This document shows positions 2,359 to 61,057 of a stretch of DNA of 64,000 nt, one piece after another (positions within the stretch are counted from its first letter, which is position 1; every line of letters starts with the position of its first letter). The notes under the pieces were generated by a model, which worked only from the letters and a program-made list of their open reading frames with translations, did no database searches and was not told where the DNA came from. This DNA comes from Methylotenera sp. (GTDB taxonomy: Bacteria > Pseudomonadota > Gammaproteobacteria > Burkholderiales > Methylophilaceae), in assembly GCA_040079935.1 (NCBI GenBank), contig JBEBJI010000006.1, positions 17,077 through 81,076 of the forward strand, given 5' to 3'. The position numbers and the translations under genes were made by a program.

Positions 2359-4431
<2,073 letters not shown>

Positions 4432-5820: not shown

Positions 5821-8800
5821 TCACAAATGTATGGCCATTGCAGCTTCAATATCCACATCAACAATGCGCGACACGCCAGATTCTTGCATAGTAACACCAA
5901 TGAGCTGTTGCGCCATTTCCATGGTGATTTTATTGTGCGAAACAAACAAAAATTGCGTTTTTTCGGACATTTTTTTTACCATATTGCAAAAACGCTCCGT
6001 GTTGCTGTCATCCAGCGGCGCATCTACTTCGTCCATCAAGCAGAATGGTGCTGGGTTTAGCTTAAACAGTGCGAACACCAACGCCAGCGCGGTTAACGCT
6101 TTTTCGCCGCCACTTAACAGTTGAATCGTCGTGTTCTTTTTGCCTGGCGGTTGCGCAAAAACTTGCAAACCAGTATCTAAAATCTCGTCGCCAAGCAATT
6201 CCAGCTTGCCTTGGCCGCCGCCAAACAGCGTGCTAAAAAGCTCGCCAAAATGTTGATTCACCGTGTTAAATGTTTGCATCAGCTTGTCGCGCGTTTCGCG
6301 GTCAATCTTCTTAATCGCATCTTCCAAGGTTTCAGTCGCCTGCACCAAATCCAACATCTGACTATCTAAATAAACTTTTCGTTCCGATTCTGTGGCCAGC
6401 TCTTGTATTGCGGCCATATTCACTGGACCGATTTCCTCAATTTGCTGCTGTAATTGGTTAGTTTTGCGCAATAATTCGCTAGTTTTTGCGTTCTCTGCCA
6501 AGCCCTGTGCCAACTCTTGCTCATTCACACCGTTTTCCTGCAAGCCAGCTTGGCATTGCTCAAAATGCAGACGCGCCTCTTGCTCGTTTAAGCGGCTTTG
6601 CTCTACGCTATCGCGCATTGGGTGCAATTGCTGCTCATTCTGCATCCGCACACGCTCAAGCGCTTGCATGACAGTTTCTGCGCCAGCCAAATGGTTGCGT
6701 GCTTCTGCCAGCGCGGTTTCGCGCAATTGCTTGGCGTTAATCGCCTCGCCAAGATTGGTTTTTAGGGTTTCCATCGGCGTCAGTTTCAAGGTTTGTTCGG
6801 CTTCTGATTGACGCAACAAAAATACAGTTTTTTCTTCACTATTTACATTAATTTTATTATTTAATTCATTGATATTATTATTAATTATTTTTGAATTAAA
6901 GTTTTCTTCTTGATATATTTTTTCTGCTTGTTGTATGGAATCGCGCAACGCTGAATAAACAACTTCGGCTTGTTGTTTAGCAGTTAAATCATCATTTTTA
7001 GCTAATTCTAGTGGCTCAAGAAGTGTCGAAACTGCTTGCAAAGCCGCTTGTTTATTAGCTTCTTCGTTGGTAAGTTGTGTTAATTTTGTGTTTGTTGCCG
7101 CAATCTCCGCCTTAATACTGGCTTCGCGTTCCAACGCTGATTGTTGTGCATGTTGCAAACGCGCCAATTCCAACTGTTGTTGATAATGCAAACTAGACGC
7201 AGTTTTAAGTTGCGTATTTTCCTGCTGTTGTTGCGCTCTCACCGCATGGATATTGGTCTCTGCAGTAGTTAAAGCTTCAGTTAATTTGCTTAAATTCTCT
7301 TGTAGTTTAGGTAAGTTTCTCTGCAATTTTTCTAGTTGTTGCTGACGTTCCAACACGCCATGCAAGCTAGAATTTTCGCCGTGATACGTAACGCTGTGAC
7401 GACTAAAAATGTCGCCTTGCGCATTCACCAAGATTTCACCTAAATTAAGATGATTAACAGCTTTTTCAGGAGCATCGCCGGGAGCCAATATCCATGAGCC
7501 TTCCAGCCAATCGGCTAAAATCGGTTTTAAATCTGCATCGCACTCTTTAATCACGCTTATCAATGGTGTTAAATGTGCGTTTTGTGAAGATTTAGCACTT
7601 TCAGAGGATGCCCTGTAGCCCAATACCAGCGCGGCTGGTGGACGTGCTCCTAAATCACCTTTTTCTGAAATCAGGGCATTCAATTTTGCGCCCAGTACCG
7701 CTTCCAGCGCCACGCTCCAAGTTTCATCAATTTTAATTTTTTGCCACAAACGTGCGTTATTTTTTAAACCCTTGCTGGAAAGCCAATCGCTCAGTTTTCC
7801 CTCAGAATTGACAGATTGTTGCAGTTTTTGAAGCGAATGAATCTCTGCATCGGCTTGATTTAACGCGCGTTGCGCTTGATTTTGCTGCTCGCGCAGTTCG
7901 CTAATTTTAGTTTGCAATGCTGTTTCGTCTACACGCTGTTTTTGCACTGCAGTTTCAATGTTAGAAACGGCCTGTGCAGCTTGTTTTAAAGCGTTTTCGC
8001 TGGTTTTTAGTTGCGCTGCATCTGGTAGCGACAAATTCGCCAAATCGGTCTGCAGGCCTGCAATGCGTTGTTTATTCTCGGCAATGCTTTGCGCGATAAA
8101 GTTGAGGTTGCTGGTTTCTATTTGAATGTGCTGATTCGCCTCCACCAGTGCATGCTGGCTGCTTTGCGCGCGTTCAGTCGCGGTTTGCAGTGCCTGCGCT
8201 TTTTCTGGCAACTTTTGTTTAAGCGCTTCTAATGCTGTTTTTGCTTGCAGTTCAGCCTGCGTTGCGGTTTCTAGTTCTGCTTGTTTTTGCACTAAACTCT
8301 GCTGAAAGTCCGCGCCAAAGCTAGCATTGCGCTCAAGTGATTGTGTGAGTTGCGCCAATTGTTGCGCCATGCGTTCGCGTGCCTCGGTGTTTTGTTTTAC
8401 TTGATTTTCTAAGTTAGAAACTTCCGCATTCGCCTCGTAATAAGCGGCTTGCGCGGTATTAATACCCTCGCTGGCCGCATAATGTGCTTGGCGACTTTGT
8501 TCAAGCTCAGCTTCGCTTTTGCGCAATTCTGCCGTTTGCGCTTCCAAGGCGTTCACCAATTTATCGACTTGCGCTTTGGTTTTCTCCCAATCTCGGCTGG
8601 CATCCCGTTTTTTTAATAACCAAAGTTGCCCATCCGCCAGCTTATAAGCGGCTTGTAGGGCATGAAATTGCTGCGTCACAACAGCTTGCGATTCTAATTT
8701 GGTGATTTGTTTTTGCAGCTCACGGCAAATATCTTCTACGCGCACCAAGTTTTCGCGCGTATCACGCAGGCGCAGTTCGGTTTCACGACGACGCTCTTTA

Positions 8801-10039: not shown

Positions 10040-10115
<76 letters not shown>

Positions 10116-41100: not shown

Positions 41101-41139
41101 ATGCCCTGCAAGGCGTATGGATATTGGCTTGCAGAGCAC
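41101..41139 (+). repeat. 39-bp palindromic repeat, intergenic copy between convergent genes
   Basis: ATGCCCTGCAAGGC GTATGGATATT GGCTTGCAGAGCAC. Confidence 0.92.
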
Positions 41140-42933: not shown

Positions 42934-43050
42934 CGAGGATTCCAATCAATTTACTATACAAGTTAGTATATACCGAGTATGTTAAAGTTTCCAAGCGGTT
43001 TCAAGCTAAAATATGCATTACTTACTAAAATAAATCATTCGCTAAGTCAC

Positions 43051-43746
43051 ATGCAATATTCATCTATAAAATGGATTAATAATCAACCATATTCAATTGA
43101 TTTTAATGATATTTATTTTAATTCAGAAGATGGTTTAGCAGAAACTGAATACGTATTTGTTGAAAAAAATCAGCTCAAACAACGTTTTGCCATGCTTAAT
43201 AATAAAACTTTCACCATCATTGAAACTGGCTTTGGTACAGGCTTAAATTTTTTAGCAGTTGCCGCTCACTGGCTAGCATTGGCGCCACCTAATGCCATTT
43301 TGCATTACATCAGTATCGAAAAATTTCCGCTAAATTTGGACGATTTACGTCGCGCGCACGCAACTTGGCCGCAGTTTGCAGAAATTTCACATGAGTTTTT
43401 GCAACATTATACCAATTTAAAAGCTGGAAATAACCAAATAAGCATGCCTGAAATCCGCATGGATATTAGCTTGCAGGTCGGCGATGTTTTAACTGTTTTA
43501 AAAAAAATACAAAGCAAAGCAGACGCTTGGTTGTTAGATGGTTTTGCGCCCGCAAAGAATGCTGATATGTGGTCGCCAGAGGTATTTGCGCAAATGGCAA
43601 GATTATCAAAAAACCGCACAACATTTGCCACATTCACGAGCGCTGGCGATGTGCGCAGAGGTTTGGAGAATGCAGGATTTAAGATTGAAAAGCACGCGGG
43701 TTTTGGCAAAAAACGTGAAATGCTAAGTGGGAAATTTTTAGGGTGA
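43051..43746 (+). CDS. mnmD: tRNA mnm5s2U methyltransferase (MnmD / MnmC N-half)
   Basis: FNDIYFN, ETGFGTGLNF, DAWLLDGFAP, GFGKKREML. Confidence 0.92.
   Translation: MQYSSIKWINNQPYSIDFNDIYFNSEDGLAETEYVFVEKNQLKQRFAMLNNKTFTIIETGFGTGLNFLAVAAHWLALAPPNAILHYISIEKFPLNLDDLRRAHATWPQFAEISHEFLQHYTNLKAGNNQISMPEIRMDISLQVGDVLTVLKKIQSKADAWLLDGFAPAKNADMWSPEVFAQMARLSKNRTTFATFTSAGDVRRGLENAGFKIEKHAGFGKKREMLSGKFLG
43443..43481 (+). repeat. 39-bp repeat, copy inside mnmD
   Basis: CATGCCTGAAATCC GCATGGATATT AGCTTGCAGGTCGG (MPEIRMDISLQV). Confidence 0.75.
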
Positions 43747-44915
43747 AAACAGCGATTGTCATCGGCGGCGGCATCGCGGGTTGCAGCACTGCTTATTTTC
43801 TCTCTCAGCGCGGCGTCCCAGTGACACTCGTCGAACGTCACGAAAATCTAGCGCAGGAAGCATCGGGCAACCCTATTGCAGTGCTTTACCCTAAATTTAG
43901 CACCAAGCCAGATGCCTCAACTTTATTGGCGTTGCAAGGTTTTGAGTTCACTTTAAACTTGCTTAAAAACCTGCCAAATTCTACCGATTTTTTTAATGCC
44001 TGCGGCATCATTCAACTGGCTTTTAACGCACGCGAGCAAGCTCGTCAGTTAGCGCTTGGCGACAATCAATATGCGAAATTAATTGATGCAAATGCAGCAA
44101 CAAAAATCGCGGGTATTGTCTTGAAAACGGGTGGTTTATATTTTCCACAAGCAGGTTGGGTTAAGCCGCAAGCCTTATGCGAAAAGCTTTGCAACCATGC
44201 GCTGATTACAAAAATGACTTCTACTAGCGCATTGACTATTAAAAAAAGCGAATTAGGATGGCAAGTGAATGATGTGCTTTTGGCAGATATTGTGGTGATT
44301 TGCAACGCCAACGATGTGCAGCAATTTGCGCAGTATAGAAGCGCGAAAATCACGCCTATGCGTGGGCAAGTCAACTTTTTTGCAGAAAATGCGCAAAGCA
44401 AAAATATCAAGACAATTATTTGCAGCGATCACTACCTAAGCCCCGCGGTTGCTGGTTGGCACGCGATTGGCACCAGTTACGCGCCGAACGATTTAAACCA
44501 GAATATTAGTGAGTCTGATACGCGCGAAAATTTAAATGCATTGCGCAAAATGGCGCCCGAAATTGCCGAAGGTTTAGCCATAGACACCATAAAAAGTCGC
44601 GTTGCTTGGCGTAGCCAAACCCTAGATTACATACCACTTGCAGGGCGATTAATTAATGAAGAAATATTACGCAACAATCCACCACGCTTTAACGTTAATC
44701 CTGCCGATTTGCCTTGGTATGACGGCTTGTATGTGAATGCGGGGCATGGCTCTAAAGGCATGATTACCGCGCCGATTTGCGGCGAATTGATTGCCAGTTT
44801 AGCCACTAACAGCGATTTACCAATTGAGCCAAAACTCGCATCTAAGTTAAACCCCAGTCGATTCTTGTTGCGCGAATTTGGCGCAAAACTGTTAGCAAAT
44901 TCGCTGTACAAATAG
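43743..44915 (+). CDS. mnmC: FAD-dependent cmnm5s2U oxidoreductase (MnmC C-half)
   Basis: IVIGGGIAG, EASGNP, RGQV, GHGSKG; 4-nt overlap with mnmD. Confidence 0.9.
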   Translation: MKTAIVIGGGIAGCSTAYFLSQRGVPVTLVERHENLAQEASGNPIAVLYPKFSTKPDASTLLALQGFEFTLNLLKNLPNSTDFFNACGIIQLAFNAREQARQLALGDNQYAKLIDANAATKIAGIVLKTGGLYFPQAGWVKPQALCEKLCNHALITKMTSTSALTIKKSELGWQVNDVLLADIVVICNANDVQQFAQYRSAKITPMRGQVNFFAENAQSKNIKTIICSDHYLSPAVAGWHAIGTSYAPNDLNQNISESDTRENLNALRKMAPEIAEGLAIDTIKSRVAWRSQTLDYIPLAGRLINEEILRNNPPRFNVNPADLPWYDGLYVNAGHGSKGMITAPICGELIASLATNSDLPIEPKLASKLNPSRFLLREFGAKLLANSLYK

Positions 44916-44928
44916 TTTAAAATGCACC

Positions 44929-46818
44929 ATGCAGAATGTGAATGAACTCTTAGCCAAAGCAAAACAAGACGAGTTGCAAGGCAACATCCATGCAGCTCTT
45001 GGCGCATATCAACAAGTGCTTCTACAACATCCTGACGAGCTTAATTTGCACGCCATTTGTGGCAACTTGTGTGTGCAACTGCAGCAATTTGAAGAAGCTG
45101 CAGGTTATTTTCGGCGCATTTTTAGCGCAGATAATAAAAATCTCGACGTACGCAATGCCTTGTGTTTTTCACTACAAGCACTTGGAAATCAAGCACATAG
45201 CACAGGAAATTTTGCGTTAGCCGAGGCGTGCTTTCATGAGGCTACGCAGCATCAGCTTGGCAATGCAGTTTATTGGTACAACTTGGGCAATGCGCAGCGC
45301 GAGCTGGGCAAGCCCGAAAAAGCGCTAGCCAGCTTTACTCAATCACTAAAATTTGACGCAAACGATGCCGATGCACACAATAATTTAGGGAATGTGCAAC
45401 GCGAGCTTGGCCAATTAGACAAGGCAATTGCCAGCTACAAAATCGCCCTGCAGCTCAACCCCCGCCTGCATCACGCGCTGGCGCACTTGGTGCATCAAAA
45501 GCAACATATTTGCGATTGGGAAGATTTAGATGCGCAAATTTTGCAACTGCGAAACCTAGTCAAAATCGAGCCGAGCGCGCAGATTTCGCCGTTTGCTTTT
45601 CTCGCCATGTCAGGCACAACGGCGCAAGAGCAAAAACAATGCGCCAGTAATTATGCAAATAATACTTTAAAAGCATGGCCTGTAAGCCGCATGGATATTG
45701 GCTCGCAGGGCATAAAAAATAGAAACTATAAACTTAAAGTTGGTTATTTTTCGGCTGATTTTAGGCTGCATCCGCTGGCTTTTTTAATCACCGAGTTGAT
45801 AGAAAAACACGATCGAAACCAATTTAAAATCTTCGCCTACTCTTACGGAAAAAATGACAAAACTCCAACGCGCAAGCGGCTTGAGAAGGCATTTGACCAC
45901 TTTATCGACATCACGAATTTGAACGATGTTGAAGCCGTGAAAAAAATTCGCAACGACGAAATTGATATTTTGATTGATTTAACGGGTTACACGCAAAGCA
46001 GCCGCAGCGGTATCGTCGCGCTTAAACCAGCGCATATTCACATCAATTGGCTGGGCTTTCCCGGAACGATGGGCGAGCTAGCTGGCAAGCCACTATTTGA
46101 TTACTTGCTGGCCGATGAGAGTGTCGCGCCGAATGCTAAAGATTTTAGCGAAAAATTATTATATATACGTTGTTATCAACCGAACGATAGTATTCGGCCA
46201 ACTAGCAAGCCTGCAACCCGCATGGATATTGGGTTACAAGGCAATGATTTTGTATTTTGTTGCTTTAACCAAACTTTTAAAATTACCGCAGAAGTGTTTG
46301 CCGCGTGGATGCGCATTTTAAAACAAACGCCAAACGGCGTGCTTTGGCTGCTTGAATGTAACCAATGGGCAAAAGCCAATCTGCAAGCGGCCGCCGAGCG
46401 TGCAGGCGTTAATAAAAATCGCTTAATTTTTGCGCCACGCGTGCCAATCGCCGAACATTTAGCGCGCCATGTTCACGCGGATTTATTCCTCGACACCCTG
46501 CCCTACAATGCCCACACCACGGCTAGCGACGCGCTTTTTATGCGCTTGCCTCTGCTCACTTGCATGGGTGAAACGTTTGCCAGCCGCGTGGCGGCGAGCT
46601 TGTTGCAAAGCGTGAATATGCCTGAACTCATCACGCAGGATTTGGCAGAATACGAAACCAAAGCGCTAGATTTAGTGCAAAACCCTAAGAAATTAGCACA
46701 ATTAAAACTGAAATTAAATATCGAAATTGAAAAATCCAACTTATTTAATCCAACGCAATTTGCGCGCGATTTGGAGAGTATATTTTTAGATGTGGTTAAT
46801 AAACAAAAGACTATGTAA
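44929..46818 (+). CDS. TPR-containing GT41 (O-GlcNAc transferase/SPINDLY-like) glycosyltransferase
   Basis: TPRs, VGYFSADFRLHP, IDLTGYT, FCCFNQTFK, LFLDTLPYNAHTTASDAL. Confidence 0.92.
   Translation: MQNVNELLAKAKQDELQGNIHAALGAYQQVLLQHPDELNLHAICGNLCVQLQQFEEAAGYFRRIFSADNKNLDVRNALCFSLQALGNQAHSTGNFALAEACFHEATQHQLGNAVYWYNLGNAQRELGKPEKALASFTQSLKFDANDADAHNNLGNVQRELGQLDKAIASYKIALQLNPRLHHALAHLVHQKQHICDWEDLDAQILQLRNLVKIEPSAQISPFAFLAMSGTTAQEQKQCASNYANNTLKAWPVSRMDIGSQGIKNRNYKLKVGYFSADFRLHPLAFLITELIEKHDRNQFKIFAYSYGKNDKTPTRKRLEKAFDHFIDITNLNDVEAVKKIRNDEIDILIDLTGYTQSSRSGIVALKPAHIHINWLGFPGTMGELAGKPLFDYLLADESVAPNAKDFSEKLLYIRCYQPNDSIRPTSKPATRMDIGLQGNDFVFCCFNQTFKITAEVFAAWMRILKQTPNGVLWLLECNQWAKANLQAAAERAGVNKNRLIFAPRVPIAEHLARHVHADLFLDTLPYNAHTTASDALFMRLPLLTCMGETFASRVAASLLQSVNMPELITQDLAEYETKALDLVQNPKKLAQLKLKLNIEIEKSNLFNPTQFARDLESIFLDVVNKQKTM
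45675..45713 (+). repeat. 39-bp repeat, near-perfect copy inside GT41 gene
   Basis: ATGGCCTGTAAGCC GCATGGATATT GGCTCGCAGGGCAT (WPVSRMDIGSQG). Confidence 0.9.
46206..46244 (+). repeat. 39-bp repeat, second copy inside GT41 gene
   Basis: CAAGCCTGCAACCC GCATGGATATT GGGTTACAAGGCAA (KPATRMDIGLQG). Confidence 0.85.
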
Positions 46819-46870
46819 CATTTCTAAAGTTTGTGATAAAGTAAAACAACGTTGAACGATAGGAAAACTC

Positions 46871-47965
46871 ATGGCTGCAATTGATATTACCCCAGTGTTG
46901 AAATACATGACCGATAAAGGTGGTTCAGACCTATTTTTCAGTACAGCGGCGGCGATTCACATGGAGATTGAGGGCGAAACCACACCCGTTAATAGTCAGA
47001 TTATGATGCCAGGCATGATTAAAGAAATCGCTTATTCGATTATGTCGCCCGCGCAAATCGCAGAATTTGAAGAAACCTTAGAGTGTAACTTTGCTATCGG
47101 ACGTAAAGATATTGGTCGTTTCCGCATTAACATTTTCAGGCAACGCGGCGAAGTTGGTATGGTGATTCGCCATATTAAAACCGAGATTCCAGATTTTGAT
47201 ATGCTGGGATTGCCGAATATTCTGCACGATTTAATTATGCGCAAACGTGGGCTGGTGCTTGTTGTTGGCGCGACTGGCTCGGGCAAGTCGACTACACTGG
47301 CCTCGATGATTGATTATCGCAATGCCAACGAAAGCGGACACATTATCACCATTGAAGACCCGATTGAATTTGTCTATCAACATAAAAAATCGGTTGTGGA
47401 TCAGCGCGAGGTCGGCATAGACACGCACTCTTTCGAAAATGCTTTAAAAAACGCCATGCGCCAAGCGCCAGACGTTATTTTGATTGGCGAAGTGCGCGAT
47501 ATGCATGGTATGCAACAAGCGCTGGCCTACGCTGAAACAGGTCATTTGTGCCTCGCCACTTTGCATGCAAATAACGCCAATCAGGCGTTGGAACGCATTA
47601 TTTCGTTCTTCCCCACTGAGGCCAAACATGGCTTGTTACTTGGCATTTCGCTCAATTTAGTTGGCATTGTCTCGCAACGATTAATTCCAGGAAAAATACA
47701 AAAGCGCGTTGCTGCGGTGGAAGTGATGATTAATACGCCGTACGTTGCCGAGTTGATACAAAAACAAAAGCTAGGCGAGATGAAAGAGATTATGGCCGAC
47801 AACAATGACATCGGCATGAACACCTTTGATCAAGCCTTATTTAGATTGTTTAGCAACGGCAAAATTGATGAAGAAAACGCGCTTGCAAATGCCGATTCGC
47901 GTAACGATTTGTCGCTAAAAATGCGTTTTGCCTCAGAAGGTGCGGCTGGCGGTTTCGGCGGCTAG
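46871..47965 (+). CDS. pilU: Type IV pilus retraction ATPase, PilU-like
   Basis: GATGSGKST, TIEDPIE, QREVGIDT, IGEVRD, TLHANNA. Confidence 0.85.
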   Translation: MAAIDITPVLKYMTDKGGSDLFFSTAAAIHMEIEGETTPVNSQIMMPGMIKEIAYSIMSPAQIAEFEETLECNFAIGRKDIGRFRINIFRQRGEVGMVIRHIKTEIPDFDMLGLPNILHDLIMRKRGLVLVVGATGSGKSTTLASMIDYRNANESGHIITIEDPIEFVYQHKKSVVDQREVGIDTHSFENALKNAMRQAPDVILIGEVRDMHGMQQALAYAETGHLCLATLHANNANQALERIISFFPTEAKHGLLLGISLNLVGIVSQRLIPGKIQKRVAAVEVMINTPYVAELIQKQKLGEMKEIMADNNDIGMNTFDQALFRLFSNGKIDEENALANADSRNDLSLKMRFASEGAAGGFGG

Positions 47966-47979
47966 CGTTTAGTTAATTT

Positions 47980-48861
47980 TTAGTCTTTGTGATTAAACGC
48001 AGCAATTAACGCCGCCGCAATAATCAGGCTGCCGCCTATCCATTCATTTAAGCTCATCACCTCGTGCGCCAAATAGTACGAGGCAAATGCAGCGACTACT
48101 AGCTCAAACAAAAACAACACAGAAGCGCGAATAGCGGTGAGCTGCGTCAAGCCAAACTGCACAGAAATCGTCACCATGAATAAAAATATGGCGACCAAGC
48201 CCATCATCAACCAACTATCTAAACTAATTTGGTTGGGATTAGGAAAGCTACTGGTTAAGAATGGCGTAAAAATCAAGGCCACGCTCATCACGCCAATCCA
48301 TGTTGCAAACGATTTGGCGCGAATGGTTAAATGATTCGATTTTCGCGTAATGATATTGGCAAAAGCAAATCCTATGCCGGCCGACAATGCGAGCCACTCA
48401 GCCGAATTTTGTGGAATTGGCCAGCGATTCGCAATATCACTAAAAGGCCCAGCAAGCATAATATATGCGCCTGTCAGAGCAATCGAAATCGAAATATAGC
48501 CAACTCTGGTAATCGGTTCCTTCAGCCAAAAGCGCGCTAACAGCAGCGTCCACAGCGGCGATAGATAAAACAGCAACATGATGCGCATCACTTCGCCATC
48601 AATCACAGATATCACATAACTAATATTGGCCCAGCCCGCAGCCAAACTTAGCCAGAAAATGCTTTTTGGTTGCGCAAAAATTCCGCGCCAATGCTTGCCA
48701 AAATAGATGACACCAATCACCAAGGCCATGCCGTAGGTGTAAAAGCTAGAAGCGGCGCCAGAAACGCCTGCTTCGGCCAGCAAGCGATAGGGATACCAAA
48801 TCACGCCCCAGGCTGAGGCGCCAAATAGCAAGCCAAATATTGCCAAAAAGTTTCTATTCAC
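47980..48861 (-). CDS. EamA/DMT-family transporter
   Basis: About 10 TM helices in two repeats; LLFYLSPLW, LFELVVA. Confidence 0.85.
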   Translation of the reverse strand: MNRNFLAIFGLLFGASAWGVIWYPYRLLAEAGVSGAASSFYTYGMALVIGVIYFGKHWRGIFAQPKSIFWLSLAAGWANISYVISVIDGEVMRIMLLFYLSPLWTLLLARFWLKEPITRVGYISISIALTGAYIMLAGPFSDIANRWPIPQNSAEWLALSAGIGFAFANIITRKSNHLTIRAKSFATWIGVMSVALIFTPFLTSSFPNPNQISLDSWLMMGLVAIFLFMVTISVQFGLTQLTAIRASVLFLFELVVAAFASYYLAHEVMSLNEWIGGSLIIAAALIAAFNHKD

Positions 48862-48879
48862 ACGACTTCCTAAATTATA

Positions 48880-50070
48880 ATGTGGCCTATGAATCCAAAT
48901 CTCAATCTACTACAGGCCTACCCGTTTCAACGCCTGCGCGAATTATTTGCAGGCATTACGCCAAATCCTGCTTATTCTGCCATTAACCTATCCATTGGTG
49001 AGCCTAAACACGCCACGCCACAGCTGATTAAAGACGCGCTGACACAGAATTTAGCAGGTTTGGCTACATACCCCACAACTATCGGCAGTTTGGCGCTTAG
49101 AGAGGCCATTTCAGCGTGGATTGCACGTCGTTACAATATTGCCGCGCCGAATCCTGAAAACGCGATTTTACCAGTGAATGGCAGTCGCGAGGCGCTATTT
49201 GCGTTTGCGCAGGTAGTGATTGATAGCACAAAGCCGAATCCAATCGTCATTTCGCCTAATCCTTTTTACCAAATTTACGAAGGCGCAGCGTTTTTGGCAG
49301 GCGCCCAGCCCTACTTTTTAAATACTTCGCCTGAAAATAATCACGCGATGGATTTTGAAAGCGTGCCAGTAGATATATTAAAGCGCGCGCAACTGGTATA
49401 TGTATGTAGCCCTGGCAACCCGTCTGGCAAGGTGATGAGCCTTGCACAGTGGAAAACGCTATTTGAATTATCAGACAAATATGGCTTTGTGATTGCGGCA
49501 GACGAATGTTATTCAGAAATTTATTTTGACGAAAATAACCCACCATTAGGTGCCCTGCAGGCCGCATCCCTATTGGCTCGCAGTCATGCCAATTTAATCG
49601 TTTTTGGCTCGCTTTCCAAGCGTTCCAACGTGCCAGGTATGCGCTCCGGCTTTGTGGCGGGCGATGAAAGAATCATCGAGAAATTCACGTTGTACCGCAC
49701 CTATCACGGTTGCGCGATGAGCCCGACCGTGCAAGCTGCGTCAATCGCCGCATGGAACGATGAAGCGCACGTGATTGAAAATCGCCGACTTTACGCAGAA
49801 AAATTTAACGCCGTAACGCCAATGTTAAGTAAAGTTTTGGAAGTTGAAATGCCTGATGCAGCATTTTATTTGTGGGCGCGCAGCAAAGAAAGCGACACAG
49901 CACTTGCAGTAAAACTTTATCGTGACTTCAATATTACCGTGCTACCCGGCAGCTATTTGGCGCGCGAGGCGCATGGCGAAAACCCAGGTAAAAATTTCAT
50001 CCGCATGGCACTGGTTGCGAGCTTGGAAGAATGCGCTGAAGCCGCCAATAGAATTAATAAATTACTTTAA
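48880..50070 (+). CDS. dapC: Succinyldiaminopimelate transaminase
   Basis: SIGEPKH, NGSREAL, CSPGNP, ADECYSE, SLSKRS. Confidence 0.93.
   Translation: MWPMNPNLNLLQAYPFQRLRELFAGITPNPAYSAINLSIGEPKHATPQLIKDALTQNLAGLATYPTTIGSLALREAISAWIARRYNIAAPNPENAILPVNGSREALFAFAQVVIDSTKPNPIVISPNPFYQIYEGAAFLAGAQPYFLNTSPENNHAMDFESVPVDILKRAQLVYVCSPGNPSGKVMSLAQWKTLFELSDKYGFVIAADECYSEIYFDENNPPLGALQAASLLARSHANLIVFGSLSKRSNVPGMRSGFVAGDERIIEKFTLYRTYHGCAMSPTVQAASIAAWNDEAHVIENRRLYAEKFNAVTPMLSKVLEVEMPDAAFYLWARSKESDTALAVKLYRDFNITVLPGSYLAREAHGENPGKNFIRMALVASLEECAEAANRINKLL
49550..49588 (+). repeat. 39-bp repeat, copy inside dapC
   Basis: GTGCCCTGCAGGCC GCATCCCTATT GGCTCGCAGTCATG (ALQAASLLARS). Confidence 0.7.
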
Positions 50071-50084
50071 CTATTATTTTTAAG

Positions 50085-51017
50085 TTATTGTTTAATATAT
50101 TTATTATTTAATCTTACCGCAAGCGAGCTCACGCCAATCAAGGCGATGCCAATAATCACTAATGCAATAGGCCAGCCAACAGCATTAGCAAAATGCTCTG
50201 CCGTGTAATAACCGATGTAACCTAGCATCGACAGCGTGCCGACAATCAATAGCGCGCGGCTTCGCACATGCGTGCTCAAAAATATCAACAAGGCCGATAA
50301 GCCAAGGAAAGCAAGTTCTAGCGGCGAGTTTTTCACCGCATCAAACACCGACCACATTAAAATAACACCGCCGACAAAGTACCAAAATGACGCGATGGCG
50401 GCGTGTTTGGATTGCTGTAGCGCGTAGGCGATGCAGATGAGCGACGTGCCAATGATGAAACCATTAAAATTGCCGTCCCAATCCCAAATATCAAACAAAG
50501 TCCCCAGCCCAATTGCACCAAACAAAACTGTGCCAAAAGCAAGCACCGTAAGGCGTTTAGCCCAAAAAGTTGCCGCTTGCTGCACCAACATCACGCCCGC
50601 CATAAATAACAAGCCGTGACGCGCGTCACCGCCCGATGCGTATTCTTGCAGCATCACCAATATGCCTGTGGGTTGCAGCCACATGGCGCCTAAAAACAAA
50701 GGTGTAGCCGCCTTCTCGAAGCGCTTGTCAGTTAAACAGGTCAACGCCATGATAAACATCGCAAAACCTATGCCCAGCGTGACAATAACTCGCGCGGCAG
50801 AGCCGAAGTCATCCCAAAACATACTAATGAATACGCCGATGCCCGCGAATACGAATATGCCGCCAATATAAGCAAATAACTTAGAAAGTACGCTAGAAGA
50901 TGGCTTGGAAGCCAATATTGGTGCGGCCTGCAGGGCATGCTTAATTTCATCCAAGCTAATATTATTATTTTTAGCGAGTGAAATAATATCTTGCAATGCT
51001 TCTTCTTTTTGCGACAT
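50085..51017 (-). CDS. Polytopic membrane protein, DUF2157-like
   Basis: Short soluble N-terminus then about 9 TM helices, YIGGIFVFAG. Confidence 0.65.
   Translation of the reverse strand: MSQKEEALQDIISLAKNNNISLDEIKHALQAAPILASKPSSSVLSKLFAYIGGIFVFAGIGVFISMFWDDFGSAARVIVTLGIGFAMFIMALTCLTDKRFEKAATPLFLGAMWLQPTGILVMLQEYASGGDARHGLLFMAGVMLVQQAATFWAKRLTVLAFGTVLFGAIGLGTLFDIWDWDGNFNGFIIGTSLICIAYALQQSKHAAIASFWYFVGGVILMWSVFDAVKNSPLELAFLGLSALLIFLSTHVRSRALLIVGTLSMLGYIGYYTAEHFANAVGWPIALVIIGIALIGVSSLAVRLNNKYIKQ
50900..50938 (-). repeat. 39-bp repeat, copy inside DUF2157-like gene
   Basis: ATGGCTTGGAAGCC AATATTGGTGC GGCCTGCAGGGCAT (HALQAAPILASKP). Confidence 0.7.
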
Positions 51018-53381: not shown

Positions 53382-55178
53382 CTATTTACCCCGCATAAAC
53401 ATTTTGTCTAAATCGGTCATGGATACCTGAAACCAAGTCGGGCGGCCGTGATTACACATACCACTGCGTTCTGTCGCTTCCATATCGCGAAGCAAGGCGT
53501 TCATTTCGGGAATAGTGAGGCTACGATTCGCACGCACAGCCGCGTGGCAAGCCATGGTGCCTAATAACTCATTACGACGCTCCGTGAGCGCACGGCTGGC
53601 ACCGTATTCGCGTAAATCTTTCAATACGTCTCTGGCTAATTGCACGGCGTCTGCATTTTGTAGCATGGTGGGCACTGCGCGAACTGCTAATGTAGAAGGC
53701 GAAAGCACGGCAATATCAAACCCCAATTGCCGCAGATTATCCGCGCCGCTTGCCAGCTCTTCGTTAACGGCTGCCACTTCTAGCCTATCTGCATTAAAGC
53801 TCACGGGAATGAGCAATGGTTGCATACTAACCGCGTTATCATCGAGTGCGTTTTTAAGTTGCTCGTACATAATGCGCTCGTGTGCGGCGTGCATATCGAC
53901 CACCACCAAGCCTTGCGCGTTTTGTGCCAGCACGTATATGCCGTGAATTTGCGCAACGGCAAAGCCTAAAGGAAACGTATGTGTGTTTTCAGCATTTAAA
54001 ATGGCATCGCCAGCAACCGCATGGATATTGGCTTGCAGAGCATCTGTTTTCGCGATATTTTGAGTGCTGCCGAATAAAGTTTCATAAAAATTGGTGGGTT
54101 GCTGTGCGCCTAAATTGATTTGAGATTGATATTGCGGATAAGCTGCGAATGGATTATGTGCGGCTTGATTGGCCGTTACTGCATTTGAAACGCCCGTTGG
54201 CGTGGCCAAACTTTTATTCAGCGCGTGAAAAATAAAGCGGTGAATCGCTTGTCCATCGCGAAAACGCACCTCGGTTTTTGCTGGATGCACGTTCACATCG
54301 ACAAGATTAGGATCAAGCTCTAAAAACAGCACAAAAGCTGGGTGGCGGTCGTGATGCAGCACATCTTGATAGGCTTGGCGAATGGCGTGCGCAATGAGTT
54401 TGTCGCGCACAAAACGACCGTTAACATAGACATATTGCGTATCGCGGCTGTTGCGGTTAAACGTCGGTTTCGCTGCCATTCCCCACAATTTTAGGCCTGC
54501 AGCTTCTTCGCTAATTTCGATAGATTCGGCTGCAAATTCCGCGCCTAACACCTCGCTGAAGCGCTTATTTGCGTGACTCGCACTATAACGACTTAAAACG
54601 CGACCATTATGCTGTAGCGTAAACGTGACATCGGGGCGAGAAAGCGCGACGCGACTAAACGCTTCTTCGCAATGACCGAATTCGGTGGCTTCAGTTTTTA
54701 AAAACTTGCGCCTCGCCGGTGTGTTGAAATATAAATCATTGACTTCGACGATTGTGCCAACATCCAATCCAATTGGCTCGAGATGCGCTATTTCACTTCC
54801 TTCCGAGGCAATACGCCATGCGTGTTTAGTTTCAACTGCACGGCTTGAAATCTGCGTGCGCGAAACAGATGCTATACTCGCCAACGCCTCACCACGAAAA
54901 CCTAAACTGGCGACAGATTCCAAATCTTCCAGCGTGGCAATTTTACTCGTGGCATGGCGTGTCAGCGCCATAGCTAAGTCATCTTGTGCAATGCCGTTGC
55001 CGTTATCAGTGACTTTTAGTTGCTTAACTCCGCCTTGCAAAAGTGAAACTTGAATATCGCTAGAACCCGCGTCCAGGCTATTTTCCAGCAATTCTTTCAA
55101 TGCTGAGGCAGGCCGTTCCACGACCTCGCCAGCGGCGATTTGACTGATGAGTTGATTGGGTAAAAGTTGGATGCGCAT
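53382..55178 (-). CDS. mutL: DNA mismatch repair protein MutL
   Basis: IAAGEVVERP, KELLENSLDAG, GFRGEAL, DMHAAHERI, CNHGRP; true start MRIQLL at 55178. Confidence 0.98.
   Translation of the reverse strand: MRIQLLPNQLISQIAAGEVVERPASALKELLENSLDAGSSDIQVSLLQGGVKQLKVTDNGNGIAQDDLAMALTRHATSKIATLEDLESVASLGFRGEALASIASVSRTQISSRAVETKHAWRIASEGSEIAHLEPIGLDVGTIVEVNDLYFNTPARRKFLKTEATEFGHCEEAFSRVALSRPDVTFTLQHNGRVLSRYSASHANKRFSEVLGAEFAAESIEISEEAAGLKLWGMAAKPTFNRNSRDTQYVYVNGRFVRDKLIAHAIRQAYQDVLHHDRHPAFVLFLELDPNLVDVNVHPAKTEVRFRDGQAIHRFIFHALNKSLATPTGVSNAVTANQAAHNPFAAYPQYQSQINLGAQQPTNFYETLFGSTQNIAKTDALQANIHAVAGDAILNAENTHTFPLGFAVAQIHGIYVLAQNAQGLVVVDMHAAHERIMYEQLKNALDDNAVSMQPLLIPVSFNADRLEVAAVNEELASGADNLRQLGFDIAVLSPSTLAVRAVPTMLQNADAVQLARDVLKDLREYGASRALTERRNELLGTMACHAAVRANRSLTIPEMNALLRDMEATERSGMCNHGRPTWFQVSMTDLDKMFMRGK
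54005..54043 (+). repeat. 39-bp repeat, copy inside mutL linker
   Basis: CATCGCCAGCAACC GCATGGATATT GGCTTGCAGAGCAT (DALQANIHAVAGDA). Confidence 0.85.
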
Positions 55179-55251
55179 AGGCAGTATTCTACTTTGATTT
55201 CGCCCGAAAGGGCCTATTGGAAATGCCGCAATTTTGCGCTTAGAAAAGGTG

Positions 55252-56583
55252 CTAATCTTTGGCGATTTTGGTTTTTGCCAACGCAGGATTGCTGGCGAAA
55301 TACTTTTTAATACCATTTAAAATAGAATCTACCAATTTATCTTGGTAAGCCTCATCATTTAATCTTTTTTCTTCATCCGGGTTGCTGATAAATGCCGTCT
55401 CAACCAATATCGACGGGATATCTGGCGATTTTAATACTGCAAAACCCGCTTGTTCGACATGATTTTTATGTAATTTATTAATCTCACCAATATGCCCAAG
55501 CACGGCTTTGCCAAGTTTCAAACTATCGTTAATCGTCGCGGTTTGTGATAAATCTAACAAGGTTTTAGCTAGCACGGGATCGCGACCTCCAAGACTCACG
55601 CCCCCAATCAAATCCGATTCATTTTCCTTTTTCGCCAAATATCTAGCCGAGGCACTTGTCGCGCCTTTTTCTGACAGCGCGAACACCGAAGAGCCGCGCG
55701 CAGCGGGGTTGGTAAAAGCATCGGCGTGAATCGAGATGAACAAATCAGCCTTAAATTTACGCGCCTTGACTACGCGCGTACCAAGCGGCACAAAATAATC
55801 GCCATCGCGCGTTAACATGGCGCGCATATTGGGTTCTTCATCAATTTTTGCCTTTAGTTTTTTGGCAATATTTAATGTAATATCTTTCTCGCGACTACCA
55901 TTGGCACCGCGAGCACCTGGGTCTTCGCCACCGTGGCCAGCATCAATCGCGATGGTAATTAAACGCTCGTCATCTTTACTGGCTATAGTTGTTTCTTCTT
56001 TTTTATCGGCAGGTACAGCGTCTGGGGCTGGCTCAGCTGTTGCTTCTGAAGTTACTTCGTCTGGCCCGCCAGTGCTAGGCGGTAGCGGCTCTATCACTGG
56101 TTTTGTGGTATCTGTCTCGGTCGACTTTTTATCTTCACTACTTTTTTTACCTAGCATGGCCATTAATTCATCTTGCAGCGGGTAAATATCCAACACTAAT
56201 CGATGTTTATAATCACCAGCGGGGGCCAGCGCGAACAAGTTCGATTTCACCTCGCCTTTTAAATCCACCGCAATGCGCACTACGCCAGGTTTAAACTTGG
56301 CTACACGCACTTGTTTGATATACGGATCGCCCGACAAAATTTTGTCCGAAAGTGAAGTGAGCGCGTTGGTCAGCTCTAAATCTTCAATATCCAGTACCAA
56401 TCTATCAGGATTTTTTAAAATTATGAGCTGATATTTGATGGGCGCGGAAGATTCAAATGCAATACGCGTATATTCCTGCGCAGGCCATACGCGCGCAGCT
56501 GTGATGGTATTTGCGGCATAAGCAATTGAATTTATTAGAAATAAACTTGCTAACAGAAAGTAAGTTAAAACGCTTTTAAACAT
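55252..56583 (-). CDS. amiC: N-acetylmuramoyl-L-alanine amidase with AMIN domain
   Basis: AMIN N-terminus, DAGHGGEDPGA, SIHAD, SILVETAFISN. Confidence 0.93.
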   Translation of the reverse strand: MFKSVLTYFLLASLFLINSIAYAANTITAARVWPAQEYTRIAFESSAPIKYQLIILKNPDRLVLDIEDLELTNALTSLSDKILSGDPYIKQVRVAKFKPGVVRIAVDLKGEVKSNLFALAPAGDYKHRLVLDIYPLQDELMAMLGKKSSEDKKSTETDTTKPVIEPLPPSTGGPDEVTSEATAEPAPDAVPADKKEETTIASKDDERLITIAIDAGHGGEDPGARGANGSREKDITLNIAKKLKAKIDEEPNMRAMLTRDGDYFVPLGTRVVKARKFKADLFISIHADAFTNPAARGSSVFALSEKGATSASARYLAKKENESDLIGGVSLGGRDPVLAKTLLDLSQTATINDSLKLGKAVLGHIGEINKLHKNHVEQAGFAVLKSPDIPSILVETAFISNPDEEKRLNDEAYQDKLVDSILNGIKKYFASNPALAKTKIAKD

Positions 56584-58101: not shown

Positions 58102-58674
58102 CTACTCAACATTTTTCTGCAATTCCATTTCAGGCTCGAAAACTGGATTGCGCTCCAACACAATCCCAGTACCGTTGCTGCTTGAGCTTTCTTTGGCATC
58201 TAACATAGGTGCCTCGTTGCTTGGGGCGCTTTCAACGCCAATCTCTTCAGCTTTCACTGGGTAAATATCCAAGGCTAAGCGATGCTGATATCCGCCTGCA
58301 GGCTTGTAGGTGCTCAACTTTGGGGCGGCCGCAGTTTTTAAATCCACCACTACGCGTGTGACGCCTTGCTTAAAATTGGCCACTCGCACTTTTTTAATGT
58401 AAAAATCTTCTGGCAAAACATTGCTTGTAAGTGCTTTCAGCGATTGATTTATCGCGACGTTTTTCAAATCCAGCACCACGCGATCAGGTTTTTTAAGTAT
58501 CAGCATCGCATGCACAATAGCTTGGTCAGATTCAATAGTAATACGCGTATATTCGCTGACAGGCAATACGCTAGCAGCAATAACCGTTGCAGCGTAGCTA
58601 GATATATTTGCTAATGAAAAAGCGCTAACAAACAGAAATTTGGCAAAAAAATTATTCACTCGCGAAACATACAA
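58102..58674 (-). CDS. Stand-alone AMIN-domain protein
   Basis: Signal peptide; YTRITIES, PDRVVLDL, RVVVDLK, HRLALDIYP, parallel to the AmiC N-terminus. Confidence 0.85.
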   Translation of the reverse strand: MYVSRVNNFFAKFLFVSAFSLANISSYAATVIAASVLPVSEYTRITIESDQAIVHAMLILKKPDRVVLDLKNVAINQSLKALTSNVLPEDFYIKKVRVANFKQGVTRVVVDLKTAAAPKLSTYKPAGGYQHRLALDIYPVKAEEIGVESAPSNEAPMLDAKESSSSNGTGIVLERNPVFEPEMELQKNVE

Positions 58675-58679
58675 ACTAA

Positions 58680-59612
58680 TTAAGCTAGAGTCAACTTTGC
58701 CGAACTTAACATGGCAGCCCCCAACATACCTGCGGTATCATTGGTAGTGGAAATTTTAACGGTGATTTTGTCGCGCAATACGGGGATTAAATCGGCTTCA
58801 AACCTTGCATCGAAAGCGCTTTTCATCAAAAGCCAAGCGCCACTCATGCCGCCACCAATCACAACGGTTTGCGCATCCACCACCTTCAAAATGCTCGCAA
58901 GCGCTTGTGCTAAAGCATTTGCAGCCAGTTCGTAAGCCTCGATTGCCGCTTTATCACCTTTATGTGCAAGTTCAGCAATTTGATGTGCGGTAAGTTGTTT
59001 TTGTATGGCGTTAAAATAGCTAATGGCGACGCCAGTGGCCGAAGCATAGGCTTCCATGCAGCCTTTGTTGCCACAACCACATTGTCGGCCGTTTGATTCA
59101 ACGATGATGTGCCCAACTTCCATCGCACAGCCATGTTGTCCGCTAACTATTTTGCTATCTAAAATTAAACCTCCGCCCACGCCCGTGCCAAGTCCCATGT
59201 AAATCAGCCCGCCTTCCGGCTTGCCTGCTAAACTATATTCACCAAAAGCAGCTGCATTGGCATCGTTTTCTAACGCAACTGGTAAATTGATGGCTTTCGA
59301 CAATTGCGCGCTCAAATCAAAATCTTTCAAATGCGGCAAATTGGGCGATTGCATTATTTTTTTTGTTGTTGGGTCAATAAAACCTGGGAAACCGACACCA
59401 ACTGCTTGAATTGCGAGATATTTTTTTTGCAGCGCGTGAATTTCTGTAAATAAAATTCTTATTACTTCTACAGGCGCAGTTTCAAAAGTAAGCGCCCGGC
59501 AGACCCCACCAATATTGACTTCCAGGCGTGTTATTTCGACTAATTTTTTGCCTTCAAACACACCAAATCGAATATTAGTGCCGCCAACATCGATGCCAAT
59601 CGTTAATGCCAC
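58680..59612 (-). CDS. ROK-family sugar kinase (glucokinase-like)
   Basis: GIDVGGT, ENDANAAA, GTGVGGG, EVGH, CGCGNKGCME. Confidence 0.92.
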   Translation of the reverse strand: MALTIGIDVGGTNIRFGVFEGKKLVEITRLEVNIGGVCRALTFETAPVEVIRILFTEIHALQKKYLAIQAVGVGFPGFIDPTTKKIMQSPNLPHLKDFDLSAQLSKAINLPVALENDANAAAFGEYSLAGKPEGGLIYMGLGTGVGGGLILDSKIVSGQHGCAMEVGHIIVESNGRQCGCGNKGCMEAYASATGVAISYFNAIQKQLTAHQIAELAHKGDKAAIEAYELAANALAQALASILKVVDAQTVVIGGGMSGAWLLMKSAFDARFEADLIPVLRDKITVKISTTNDTAGMLGAAMLSSAKLTLA

Positions 59613-61057
59613 TAATGTACCCTATTCGACTGCTGAATAGCCTGTTTAATGCCATCAATGTGTTCTGTTTTTAGCGCATCCCAATCAAATCGCCATTGCC
59701 AATTGCCGCCCATGGTGCCAGGAACATTCATGCGATGCTTCGCATCCAAGCCCAAAATGTCCTGCATAGGAATAATGGCAATATTGGCTTTTGTTTCAAG
59801 CGCCAATTGCACCAAGGCTTGCGGCATATTAGGTTGCGCGCTTTTTAGCACGGCATGCAGATGATTTTTTGCGCGTTCATCCAAGGCTTGATACCAACCC
59901 AGCGTGGTGTCATTATCGTGCGTACCTGTGTAAACCACACTATTTTCCTGAATATTCTGTGGAAGATACGGATTTTTATCATCGCCGCCAAAGGCAAATT
60001 GTAAGATTTTCATGCCTGGCAGATTATATTTTTCGCGTAAAGCATCAACTTCTGTAGTAATAATGCCCAAATCTTCTGCAATCAAACTTAAATGCGGAAA
60101 ATGTCCTTTAATAGTTTTTAATAAAGCATCGCCAGGAGCCAATACCCATGAGCCTTGCACGGCAGTCTCAGAGGTAGCTGGAACTTCCCAAGCAGATTCT
60201 AAACCGCGAAAATGGTCAATGCGCAACATGTCGAACATACGATTTTGCGTGCGCATACGCCCTAGCCACCAGCTAAACCCATTGCGCTGCATGGCGGGCC
60301 AGTTGTAATGCGGGTTGCCCCAGCGCTGGCCAGTCTCGCTAAAATAATCAGGTGGTACGCCCGCCACCACTTGCATATTTTTTGCAGAATCCAGCTTAAA
60401 TAAATGCGGTTTTGCCCACACATCAGCGCTGTCGAACGCCACAAAGAGTGGAATATCGCCAAACATCGCAATGTTGCGCTTATTTGCATATTTTTTAAGC
60501 GCTTGCCATTGCCGAAAAAACAAAAACTGCGTGAATTTAATCACGCCAATTTCATGCGCGTGGCGTTTTTTCACTTTCGCCATTACGGCTGCTTGTTTAT
60601 TTTTGTAGGCAGTTGGCCAAGTGTTCCAACTGGTATGTTTAAACTTTTCGCGCAGCACCAAAAAGAGTGCGAAATCGCCCAGCCAAGCCAAGTTTTCGCG
60701 GCAAAAATGGACGAACTCTTGTTGTAATTTTAAATTTTTATGTTGTTTATAATGTACATAGGCATCGCCAAGAGCCGCATGGATATTACCTTGCAGAGCA
60801 TCTCGTTTTATTAGTTTTTGCTCAACTAATTGCTCTAAACTAATAAATTTAGGATTGCCCGCATGGGCGCTTAAACATTGATATGGAGAACCATCATCGT
60901 GCGGCATATTCAGCGGCAAAGTTTGCCAAACGTGCGCACCAATGTCAGCTAAAAAATCGACAAACTTTTGCGCATCCGCACCAAAATCACCCGCTGGTAG
61001 CGAGCTGACGTGCAGTAAAACGCCTGCGCAACGTGCTTGATTTGAATTTTGTGACAT
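59612..61057 (-). CDS. malQ: 4-alpha-glucanotransferase (amylomaltase)
   Basis: GVPPDYFSETGQRWGNP, RIDHFRG, AEDLG, YTGTHDNDT. Confidence 0.96.
   Translation of the reverse strand: MSQNSNQARCAGVLLHVSSLPAGDFGADAQKFVDFLADIGAHVWQTLPLNMPHDDGSPYQCLSAHAGNPKFISLEQLVEQKLIKRDALQGNIHAALGDAYVHYKQHKNLKLQQEFVHFCRENLAWLGDFALFLVLREKFKHTSWNTWPTAYKNKQAAVMAKVKKRHAHEIGVIKFTQFLFFRQWQALKKYANKRNIAMFGDIPLFVAFDSADVWAKPHLFKLDSAKNMQVVAGVPPDYFSETGQRWGNPHYNWPAMQRNGFSWWLGRMRTQNRMFDMLRIDHFRGLESAWEVPATSETAVQGSWVLAPGDALLKTIKGHFPHLSLIAEDLGIITTEVDALREKYNLPGMKILQFAFGGDDKNPYLPQNIQENSVVYTGTHDNDTTLGWYQALDERAKNHLHAVLKSAQPNMPQALVQLALETKANIAIIPMQDILGLDAKHRMNVPGTMGGNWQWRFDWDALKTEHIDGIKQAIQQSNRVH
60127..60165 (-). repeat. 39-bp repeat, copy inside malQ
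   Basis: CATCGCCAGGAGCC AATACCCATGA GCCTTGCACGGCAG (VQGSWVLAPGDA). Confidence 0.6.
60763..60801 (+). repeat. 39-bp repeat, second copy inside malQ
   Basis: CATCGCCAAGAGCC GCATGGATATT ACCTTGCAGAGCAT (DALQGNIHAALGDA). Confidence 0.82.

Follow-up and report, generated by a model that had tools for sequence, protein, structure and literature searches.

To our knowledge, the textbook cases of sequence-specific uptake signals shaping genomes and proteomes come from only two bacterial families. Uptake sequences such as the uptake signal sequence (USS) of the Pasteurellaceae and the DNA uptake sequence (DUS) of the Neisseriaceae lie mostly in open reading frames (ORFs), where they arose by substitution with a frame bias and a preference for poorly conserved residues; they are missing from genes without homologues in relatives, and dyad-symmetric intergenic copies are found at gene ends (Findlay and Redfield 2009, PMC2817400). 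Another example is HIP1 (GCGATCGC) of cyanobacteria, an 8-bp palindromic word tied to methyltransferases, which is hyper-abundant in coding regions as well and is kept by DNA-level selection or drive, not by transposition (PMC5861425, PMC4390886). Published intragenic copies of repetitive extragenic palindromes (REPs) have been described as insertions (PMC3733652). The subject of this work is a palindromic motif of 39 bp in Methylotenera sp. (Methylophilaceae), found in a stretch of 64,000 nucleotides (GenBank assembly GCA_040079935.1, contig JBEBJI010000006.1, positions 17,077 to 81,076 of the forward strand), which is called the window below. Alignments with relatives show that the copies inside genes were not inserted; they were assembled by nucleotide substitutions, with occasional small indels, at somewhat similar sites where the protein tolerates change. 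The motif resembles HIP1 as a hyper-abundant palindromic word that extends into coding regions and seems to be kept at the DNA level; unlike HIP1, it measures 39 bp, shows no obvious connection with methylation and occurs in only part of a single genus. The literature searched described neither this motif nor uptake signals in the Methylophilaceae.

The genome to which the window belongs (G000; other G and L labels denote other genomes, and C labels its contigs, the window being C67:17077-81076) is a 2.4-Mb draft in 81 contigs with approximate, ORF-based gene calls and a coding fraction of 0.91. A repeat search of the window uncovered a family of imperfect palindromes of about 39 nt with the consensus ATGCCCTGCAAGCC - GCATGGATATT - GGCTTGCAGGGCAT (left arm, centre and right arm), in which two 14-bp arms in dyad symmetry enclose a conserved asymmetric centre of 11 nt. 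Many copies carry TTAAAAA on one flank and TTTTTAA on the other, and these A/T runs lengthen the intergenic copies to about 59 bp. Genome-wide, a 39-column position weight matrix (PWM) gave 714 non-overlapping matches of at least 12 bits, 390 of them of at least 30 bits, compared to 4 matches in the reversed-sequence genome that served as control. A 15-nt core with up to three mismatches occurs 26 times in the window, where 1.7 occurrences are expected and none of 100 shuffles reached 26; with at most one mismatch it occurs 222 times in G000. The top 10- and 12-mers of the whole genome all stem from the element, the commonest being the centre CAATATCCAT with 247 copies. Information is spread across the 39 bp, and each 11-mer sub-segment is enriched. 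Copies of at least 14 bits are balanced between the strands (332 plus, 329 minus), and copy density is near-Poisson with 5.7 +/- 2.6 per 20 kb. Copy orientation showed no bias relative to GC skew over the whole genome, which led to the rejection of a replication-oriented signal of the Chi or KOPS type.

The conserved entity is the DNA sequence, neither a peptide nor a hairpin. As can be read from its sequence, the consensus is open in all six frames without any stop codon, and 518 of the 714 copies (about 73%) lie inside gene calls, so that 424 of the 2292 genes (about 18%) hold at least one. Among 468 intragenic copies of at least 14 bits all six reading frames are occupied, although very unevenly: on the opposite strand the motif is read as ALQANIHA in 226 copies and as PISMRLA in 46, on the same strand as ALQAAWILA in 96 and as RMDIGLQG in 72, and the remaining two frames account for 15 and 13 copies. 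A peptide is excluded as the conserved entity because six frames are used, the intergenic consensus is identical and synonymous changes go toward the consensus. A preliminary description of the window had noticed that one DNA is read in several frames, and the peptides it listed were recovered among these genic copies. Its proposal that selection or drive acts on the DNA and not on a peptide holds as far as the DNA level is concerned, as the use of frames and the synonymous changes indicate; drive and selection are not separable with these data. With its flanks, the consensus folds as a 24-bp stem with an 11-nt loop, A-run and T-run included (-27.2 kcal/mol, z = -10). Folding of the genic copies at 45675, 46206 and 43443 does not surpass that of shuffled sequences (z = -1.9, +0.3 and +0.1). 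No stem covariation was detected, Watson-Crick pairing at non-consensus stem positions being close to the expectation from column frequencies (79 versus 69.9 expected in intergenic copies, 141 versus 177.9 in genic ones), and a scan of the window with the Rfam covariance models returned no family that matches the element, only two tRNAs reaching the gathering score. A function as an RNA or single-stranded DNA hairpin is unsupported, given the missing covariation, genic folds equal to shuffles, random orientation and the lack of an Rfam match.

Substitution and insertion were distinguished by comparison with orthologues from the motif-free G023 and G021 (400 kb each) and from G022 (380 kb), together with alignments of the GT41 protein (A1, 16 species) and of dapC (A2) and MnmD (A3), each from 19 congeners. 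Median protein identity of G000 is 80% to G022 and 77% to both G023 and G021, the closest relatives found share 80-83% DNA identity with it, and at the 75-85% protein identity of these relatives single mutational steps cannot be timed. At 132 genic sites an orthologue was available in G023, and a clean 13-residue insertion was seen at none of them. For copies of at least 30 bits, compared in surrounding windows of 44 residues, G000 and the relative are equal in length in 46 of 87 comparisons (14 of 32 with G023, 16 of 30 with G021 and 16 of 25 with G022), and the remaining differences scatter symmetrically from -27 to +13 residues. The length is unchanged in 67 of 74 comparisons for copies of 12-20 bits. 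Some copies, lying in linkers of variable length, are for that reason accompanied by small indels (2-8 residues), and in two copies an 8-residue insertion overlaps part of the motif. The two motif-free outgroups have an identity of 0.36-0.59 to each other at strong sites and of 0.82 in the background. In-frame insertion of a 39-bp element, in the manner of Rickettsia palindromic elements or intragenic REPs, could be imagined from an element that measures exactly 13 codons, is open in six frames and has its strong copies in indel-prone linkers, where 36-56% of the windows show a non-zero length difference versus 8-11% of the controls. This explanation is nevertheless highly improbable, as the expected gain of 11 to 15 residues was seen in a single comparison out of 87, with the gap beside the motif and not over it, in a poorly aligned tail, and as the length differences are symmetric in sign. 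Rickettsia palindromic elements are likewise palindromic repeats within protein genes that leave the frame intact, but they add residues in-frame, whereas the Methylotenera alignments show no 13-residue gain. Insertion was rejected by pairwise, three-way and 16-19-species alignments alike. The suggestion in the preliminary description that intragenic copies overwrite existing codons is thus confirmed, and its mobile-element alternative, in which all sites would be clean 39-bp insertions, does not apply.

The copies described at 43443-49588 were found again, with 26.7-53.8 bits for the strong ones, and at 45675, 46206, 43443 and 49550 G000 has been rewritten where the outgroups match one another. 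The GT41 gene with its TPR region (44929-46818) holds the near-perfect copy 45675..45713 (+, 53.8 bits; SRMDIGSQG, read as AWPVSRMDIGSQGI), which lies in a variable linker equal in length to that of the motif-free G021, G023, G001 and G019 (..LIQQH.GFDF....). Insertion, which had been left as an option for this copy, finds no gap there against the four motif-free orthologues. Where G000 has AWPVSRMDIGSQGI, two motif-free genomes have KLIKQHTGFDFTHL and KLIQQHAGFDFNQL; the latter agree at 10 of 14 residues among themselves and at none of the 14 with G000. The G022 orthologue scores just 28.9 bits, and partial motifs occupy the equivalent place in G022, G004, G013 and G008. In the catalytic domain, the copy 46206..46244 (+, 40.7 bits), read as SKPATRMDIGLQGN, stands directly before FVFCCFN, and TRMDIGLQGN(D) of G000 aligns without gap to TK..HNLPEN(.FVFCCFN) in all 15 other species of A1. 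Coincidence, that is, orthologues carrying the same codons, had been named as an alternative and does not hold at strong sites such as these two. The two nearest relatives found, L041 and L044, also carry the motif at the site equivalent to 46206 (window 46206-46260). Both have four extra residues between motif and FVFCCFN, ..GLQGMSTNKDFVF compared to ..GLQGNDFVF in G000, a small indel beside the motif. Near the N-terminus, the copy 44969..45007 (-, 26.7 bits; QGNIHAALG, read as DELQGNIHAALGAY) is gap-free against QGNPGLALQ, QGSASSALH and similar segments in nearer congeners; distant orthologues align from a later residue only.

Graded series toward the consensus, synonymous changes included, are formed by orthologous sites of dapC and mnmD in 19 species. 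The copy 49550..49588 (+, 32.4 bits) in the gene of a class I/II aminotransferase ('dapC', 48880-50070), read as GALQAASLLARSHA, is gap-free at the motif. The series leads from GALQAA(H/Y)QLGRDYK in motif-free genomes through ..YLLGRGHA and ..SLLGRSHA to ..SLLARSHA in G000, with consensus matches rising from 18-21 of 39 nt in the motif-free genomes to 22-27 and to 28 in G000; a synonymous change of Arg from AGA to CGC is among the steps. In the gene of the MnmD-type methyltransferase (42979-43746), the copy 43443..43481 (+, 38.0 bits; IRMDISLQ, read as SMPEIRMDISLQVG) is likewise gap-free, and the series runs from the motif-free LFDNRVQLTILVG via MAGGRIQLALQV and MAVSRIDIGLWL to G000.

The same pattern is seen elsewhere in the window. 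The MutL linker copy 54005..54043 (+, 45.1 bits; gene 53382-55316 on the minus strand), read as DALQANIHAVAGDA, had been the other candidate for an insertion; the linker measures 31 residues between conserved anchors in G000 and 31, 30 and 29 in G023, G021 and G022, which speaks against it. In the MalQ gene (59612-61057), the copy 60127..60165 (-, 33.5 bits), read as TAVQGSWVLAPGDA, is gap-free, with the intermediate TAINGQWVLAPGDE in G022 and TAINGKWQVAPGNL in motif-free genomes. The second MalQ copy, 60763..60801 (+, 39.6 bits), read as DALQGNIHAALGDA, is gap-free over the motif against G023 and G022 in a four-genome MAFFT alignment, in which G021 has its own 6-residue insertion; in the pairwise 44-residue window against G023, G000 is 8 residues shorter just upstream of the motif, and under either alignment this copy is not an insertion. 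Two copies in the SMC gene (5821-9318), 7473..7511 (-, 37.7 bits), read as DWLEGSWILAPGDA, and 7608-7646 (30.5 bits), are gap-free with G022 intermediate at 22.0 and 25.4 bits. Three copies in LigA (gene 2359-4428), at 3211..3249 (+, 28.0 bits), 2787-2825 (23.3 bits) and 3930-3968 (23.0 bits), are gap-free against G023, G021 and G022. The DUF2157 gene (50085-51017), which holds the copy 50900..50938 (-, 43.0 bits) read as HALQAAPILASKPS, had no orthologue among the sampled relatives.

Weak copies of 12-20 bits largely consist of codons that are also present in motif-free orthologues, and those at 2547, 8625, 48444 and 61957 are pre-existing look-alikes, not rewritten sites. At 48444..48482 (-, 18.0 bits), in the gene of an EamA transporter (47980-48861), 11 of 14 residues are common with motif-free orthologues, which indicates pre-existing similarity; the same applies to the weak GT41 match 46364..46402 (-, 13.1 bits; QWAKANLQAAAERA), whose residues are largely conserved in motif-free orthologues. 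Such matches are what could be cited for chance, or for convergence on a favoured peptide through protein-level selection. As an account of the whole family this is hardly conceivable in view of the excess over the control, the use of six frames, intergenic copies with the same consensus, synonymous changes toward it and the absence of the motif from four congeners, and for the strong copies it is refuted.

According to Pfam, the host genes encode Methyltransf_30 (MnmD-type), an FAD oxidoreductase, GT41 with TPR, a T2SSE ATPase, EamA, a class I/II aminotransferase and DUF2157, and further genes of the host regions encode LigA, SMC, MutL, MalQ, ROK and GH57. A codon-position test revealed a slight excess of consensus matches at third positions (0.86 versus 0.83). 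Outside the window, at C67:5992-6922, a 38-bit copy NDLQANIHAGHSLG ends right at a G-H-S-L-G motif conserved in all relatives. This motif looks like the nucleophile elbow of an alpha/beta hydrolase; if so, the repeat can abut catalytic residues. As to other features of the window, its sole Rfam matches are two tRNA genes at 10040-10112 and 10219-10291 (both +). Two pairs of 51-57-nt segments in 56167-56499 and 58246-58578, with 75-78% identity and a common offset of 2079 nt, suggest paralogous genes that have diverged, and the stretch 55317-56564 received no gene call in the ORF-based calls.

Comparison with G022, which has the same consensus at about one third of the density of G000, gives a view of how copies are built and kept. 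G022 scores at the motif sites of G000 are continuous, from -56 to +30 bits. Motif-free outgroups score -18 bits on average at these sites, compared to a background of -40 (sd 11); copies therefore grow where some similarity, a proto-site, pre-existed. Ten of the 11 mapped genic copies of G022 are common with G000, and the G000 version scores higher in 8. G000 is about equidistant from G022, G023 and G021, and the asymmetry therefore means that copies are actively held or improved in G000 and do not merely decay elsewhere: compared with sister species, the hold on the consensus, or the push toward it, is stronger in this genome.

Within the genus, counts of the 15-nt core descend from 222 in G000 to 135, 115, 68, 61 and finally 12 in 16 congeners, and are zero in G001, G011, G021 and G023, whose assemblies are 94-100% complete (G021 and G023 in a single contig). 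Other families of the order yielded only 5 single near-matches, at most one per genome, and 400 kb of the motif-free G023 contained no over-represented word that could be an alternative 'dialect' of the motif. In the species collection, at least 113 stretches contain the exact 20-mer of the motif, almost all of them with a Methylotenera or Methylophilaceae label, and the relatives of one window protein are nearly all Methylotenera metagenome-assembled genomes (MAGs). Across the genomes searched, the motif is apparently restricted to part of the genus Methylotenera. The 20-mer was also seen in L203, L204, L209 and L213, MAGs labelled Gallionella, Nitrosomonadales and 'Betaproteobacteria NC_groundwater_329', twice at most 90 nt from the end of a contig; these occurrences could be explained by mis-binning, by transfer or by a broader distribution. 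Among the top motif-free gaps of G000, which were the ones inspected, the longest are a 34-kb segment (C70:1-34020) that encodes a type IV secretion coupling protein as well as NirK, a copper nitrite reductase fused to cytochrome c, and a 29-kb polysaccharide biosynthesis cluster (C41:11291-40231) with a low GC content of 39.4%. Both are probably acquired or exchanged DNA.

Intergenic copies concentrate at the 3' ends of genes. Of the strong ones (at least 30 bits) that could be assigned to a region, 80 of 153 lie between convergent genes, and 31% of the convergent intergenic regions carry a strong copy, compared to 3-5% of the tandem or divergent ones. They show no preferred orientation with respect to the neighbouring genes. 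In the window, the copy 41101..41139 (+, 48.7 bits) lies between convergent genes with A-run and T-run flanks, and the orthologous intergenic region is shorter in G021. Other intergenic copies lie at 11413, 13269, 21062, 26669 and 31718 (42-50 bits) and at 29430 (20.1 bits). In two cases (C24:5277-5356 and C24:51711-51974) an orthologous region has the element in opposite orientation in G000 and G022; either the asymmetric centre flipped between the arms or the gains were independent. Two further types of short intergenic repeat were observed, palindromes of the form GTCATTCC(C/G)...GGAATGAC and the sequence GGAATATATGCGCTAAA(A/G)CGCATTATTC, with loci at C5:94902-95060, C24:5821-6095, C24:51711-51974 and C39:24806-24938.

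The element shares several features with REP sequences and the REPINs mobilized by REP-associated tyrosine transposases (RAYTs): it is an abundant, imperfect palindrome of 20-40 nt, is enriched at gene 3' ends, especially convergent ones, and occurs in a genome with one RAYT. It differs in having no GTAG or CGTC head, in being 57-73% genic and in lacking stem covariation, and the RAYT has REPs of its own. This Y1 (tyrosine) transposase of 175 aa (C58:26958-27485) is directly flanked on both sides (C58:26830-28300) by GTAG-headed REPs TGTAGGGCGCAATA...TATTGCGCC, which are unlike the motif in sequence and present in a handful of copies. One GTAG-headed REP was seen in the window at about 11360-11400 (-), adjoining the 39-nt copy at 11413. 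RAYT homologues are absent from the motif-rich G013, G007, G003 and G022 and present in G017, which has a single motif copy, and those of G015, G016 and G017 are not flanked by the motif. In the L214 MAG a motif copy lies just 3' of a RAYT homologue, at the same syntenic spot as in G000, so that it is not independent evidence. Because this RAYT comes with GTAG-headed REPs of its own and is distributed differently from the motif, a REP-RAYT system was rejected. No reverse transcriptase (RVT_1 domain) was found in G000 or in most motif-bearing genomes, on which ground templated overwriting of the diversity-generating retroelement (DGR) or retron type was rejected as well.

An uptake-signal-like molecular drive at the DNA level, filtered by protein constraint, is the best reading of these observations, and we give it roughly an even chance of being the mechanism. 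DNA fragments with better motif matches would be preferentially taken up by a type IV pilus/ComEC competence machinery and recombined into the chromosome, and motif-improving mutations would then spread by molecular drive. Purifying selection on proteins would limit the places and frames in which such mutations persist, and intergenic copies, on which no coding constraint acts, could become almost perfect palindromes at gene 3' ends and may serve there as bidirectional terminators as well. G000 encodes an intact ComEC and a minor pilin of the ComP_DUS family that heads a ComP/FimT-like/PilW/PilX operon, the ComP-family and FimT-like minor pilins being encoded at C6:44101-45095, and the window encodes a T2SSE-family (type II/IV secretion) ATPase that is possibly PilT-like. 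The motif resembles USS and DUS in its hundreds of evenly spread copies in both orientations, its restriction to a lineage, the many ORF copies formed by substitution with frame bias at poorly conserved residues and its dyad-symmetric, terminator-like intergenic copies at gene ends; a scarcity in acquired DNA may be added, to judge from the top motif-free gaps. It departs from them in the host, an environmental methylotroph without known competence, and in its dyad arms with an asymmetric centre. Several points weigh against uptake. With 39 bp the motif greatly exceeds the 9-12-bp cores of USS and DUS in length and information content, and its density of about 1 per 3.4 kb is below that in Haemophilus or Neisseria. 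Motif-free congeners encode ComEC and the ComP-family pilin just as G000 does, and therefore no receptor explains the motif distribution. No uptake or transformation data for the clade, and none on competence in the genus, were found in the literature. Pilin receptors are not known to read signals that combine dyad symmetry with an asymmetric centre. Only CCTGCA is common to the arm ATGCCCTGCAA and one DUS dialect, a similarity that we take as a lead only. At sites of at least 30 bits where the outgroups agree and are off-consensus, the consensus base was acquired at 104 positions and a different base at 19, and 55 stayed unchanged (background change 17%), but the 104-versus-19 count is circular, these sites having been selected for consensus match, and only gauges the rewriting needed. 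Finally, the intergenic regions with a strong copy exceed their orthologues in length by a median of 64-76 bp (n = 7-11 per relative), an excess that is uncorrected for the bias that only long regions can hold a copy, and regions without a copy are not longer; the intergenic copies thus look like added DNA, more like the insertion of a discrete module of about 60 bp.

This length excess is what favours a mobile palindrome of about 60 bp, similar to REPs or miniature inverted-repeat transposable elements (MITEs), that would insert intergenically and give rise to genic copies by short-patch ectopic gene conversion or templated repair into look-alike sites, with length kept. It would fit the near-perfect intergenic palindromes with 24-bp stems, the opposite orientations within the same region in G000 and G022, the origin of genic copies at pre-existing similarity and the 8-residue indels that overlap some copies. 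We nevertheless consider it unlikely, as no cognate transposase was found beside the RAYT with its own REPs, reverse transcriptases are lacking, no target-site duplication was seen at intergenic copies, whose boundaries could not be aligned, 39 bp are short for RecA-dependent conversion, and the graded multi-species series with single synonymous steps argue for gradual change. A similarly small chance is given to natural selection on chromosome function, in which the copies would be binding sites of a dimeric DNA-binding protein acting, for example, in nucleoid organisation, cohesion or termination. Several observations suit such sites: the half-sites stand in dyad symmetry about two turns of the helix apart, the copies are evenly spaced (near-Poisson) without strand bias, the sequence and not a hairpin is conserved, and G000 copies are closer to the consensus than those of G022. 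However, zero copies in four congeners, two of them single-contig, beside about 12-222 cores among sisters are hard to square with a needed function; hundreds of copies were forced into coding DNA and displaced residues that other genomes conserve (NLPEN of GT41, for example), a depletion in likely acquired DNA would fit time-dependent accumulation, and no candidate protein was identified. A slender chance is left for a sequence-specific conversion or repair bias of an undescribed kind, neither uptake nor transposition nor reverse transcription, that would rewrite DNA, coding regions included, toward the 39-bp consensus with length kept; in one possible form, a motif-binding or motif-nicking protein would steer repair toward the consensus.

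If uptake-driven spread is the correct explanation, Methylotenera would be a third independent case, and DNA-level drive would be more widespread than thought, extending to free-living freshwater methylotrophs with a long dyad-symmetric signal. For annotation and phylogenetics it matters that about 18% of the genes carry a copy, since those segments evolve convergently. Even if uptake is not the cause, a DNA word overrides residues that are conserved in every other congener and exposes a conflict between protein selection and DNA-level forces. The genus itself, with zero to about 700 copies per genome and a median protein identity of 77-80% in three relatives, forms a natural series in which the birth of such a signal and the identity of its reader can be addressed.

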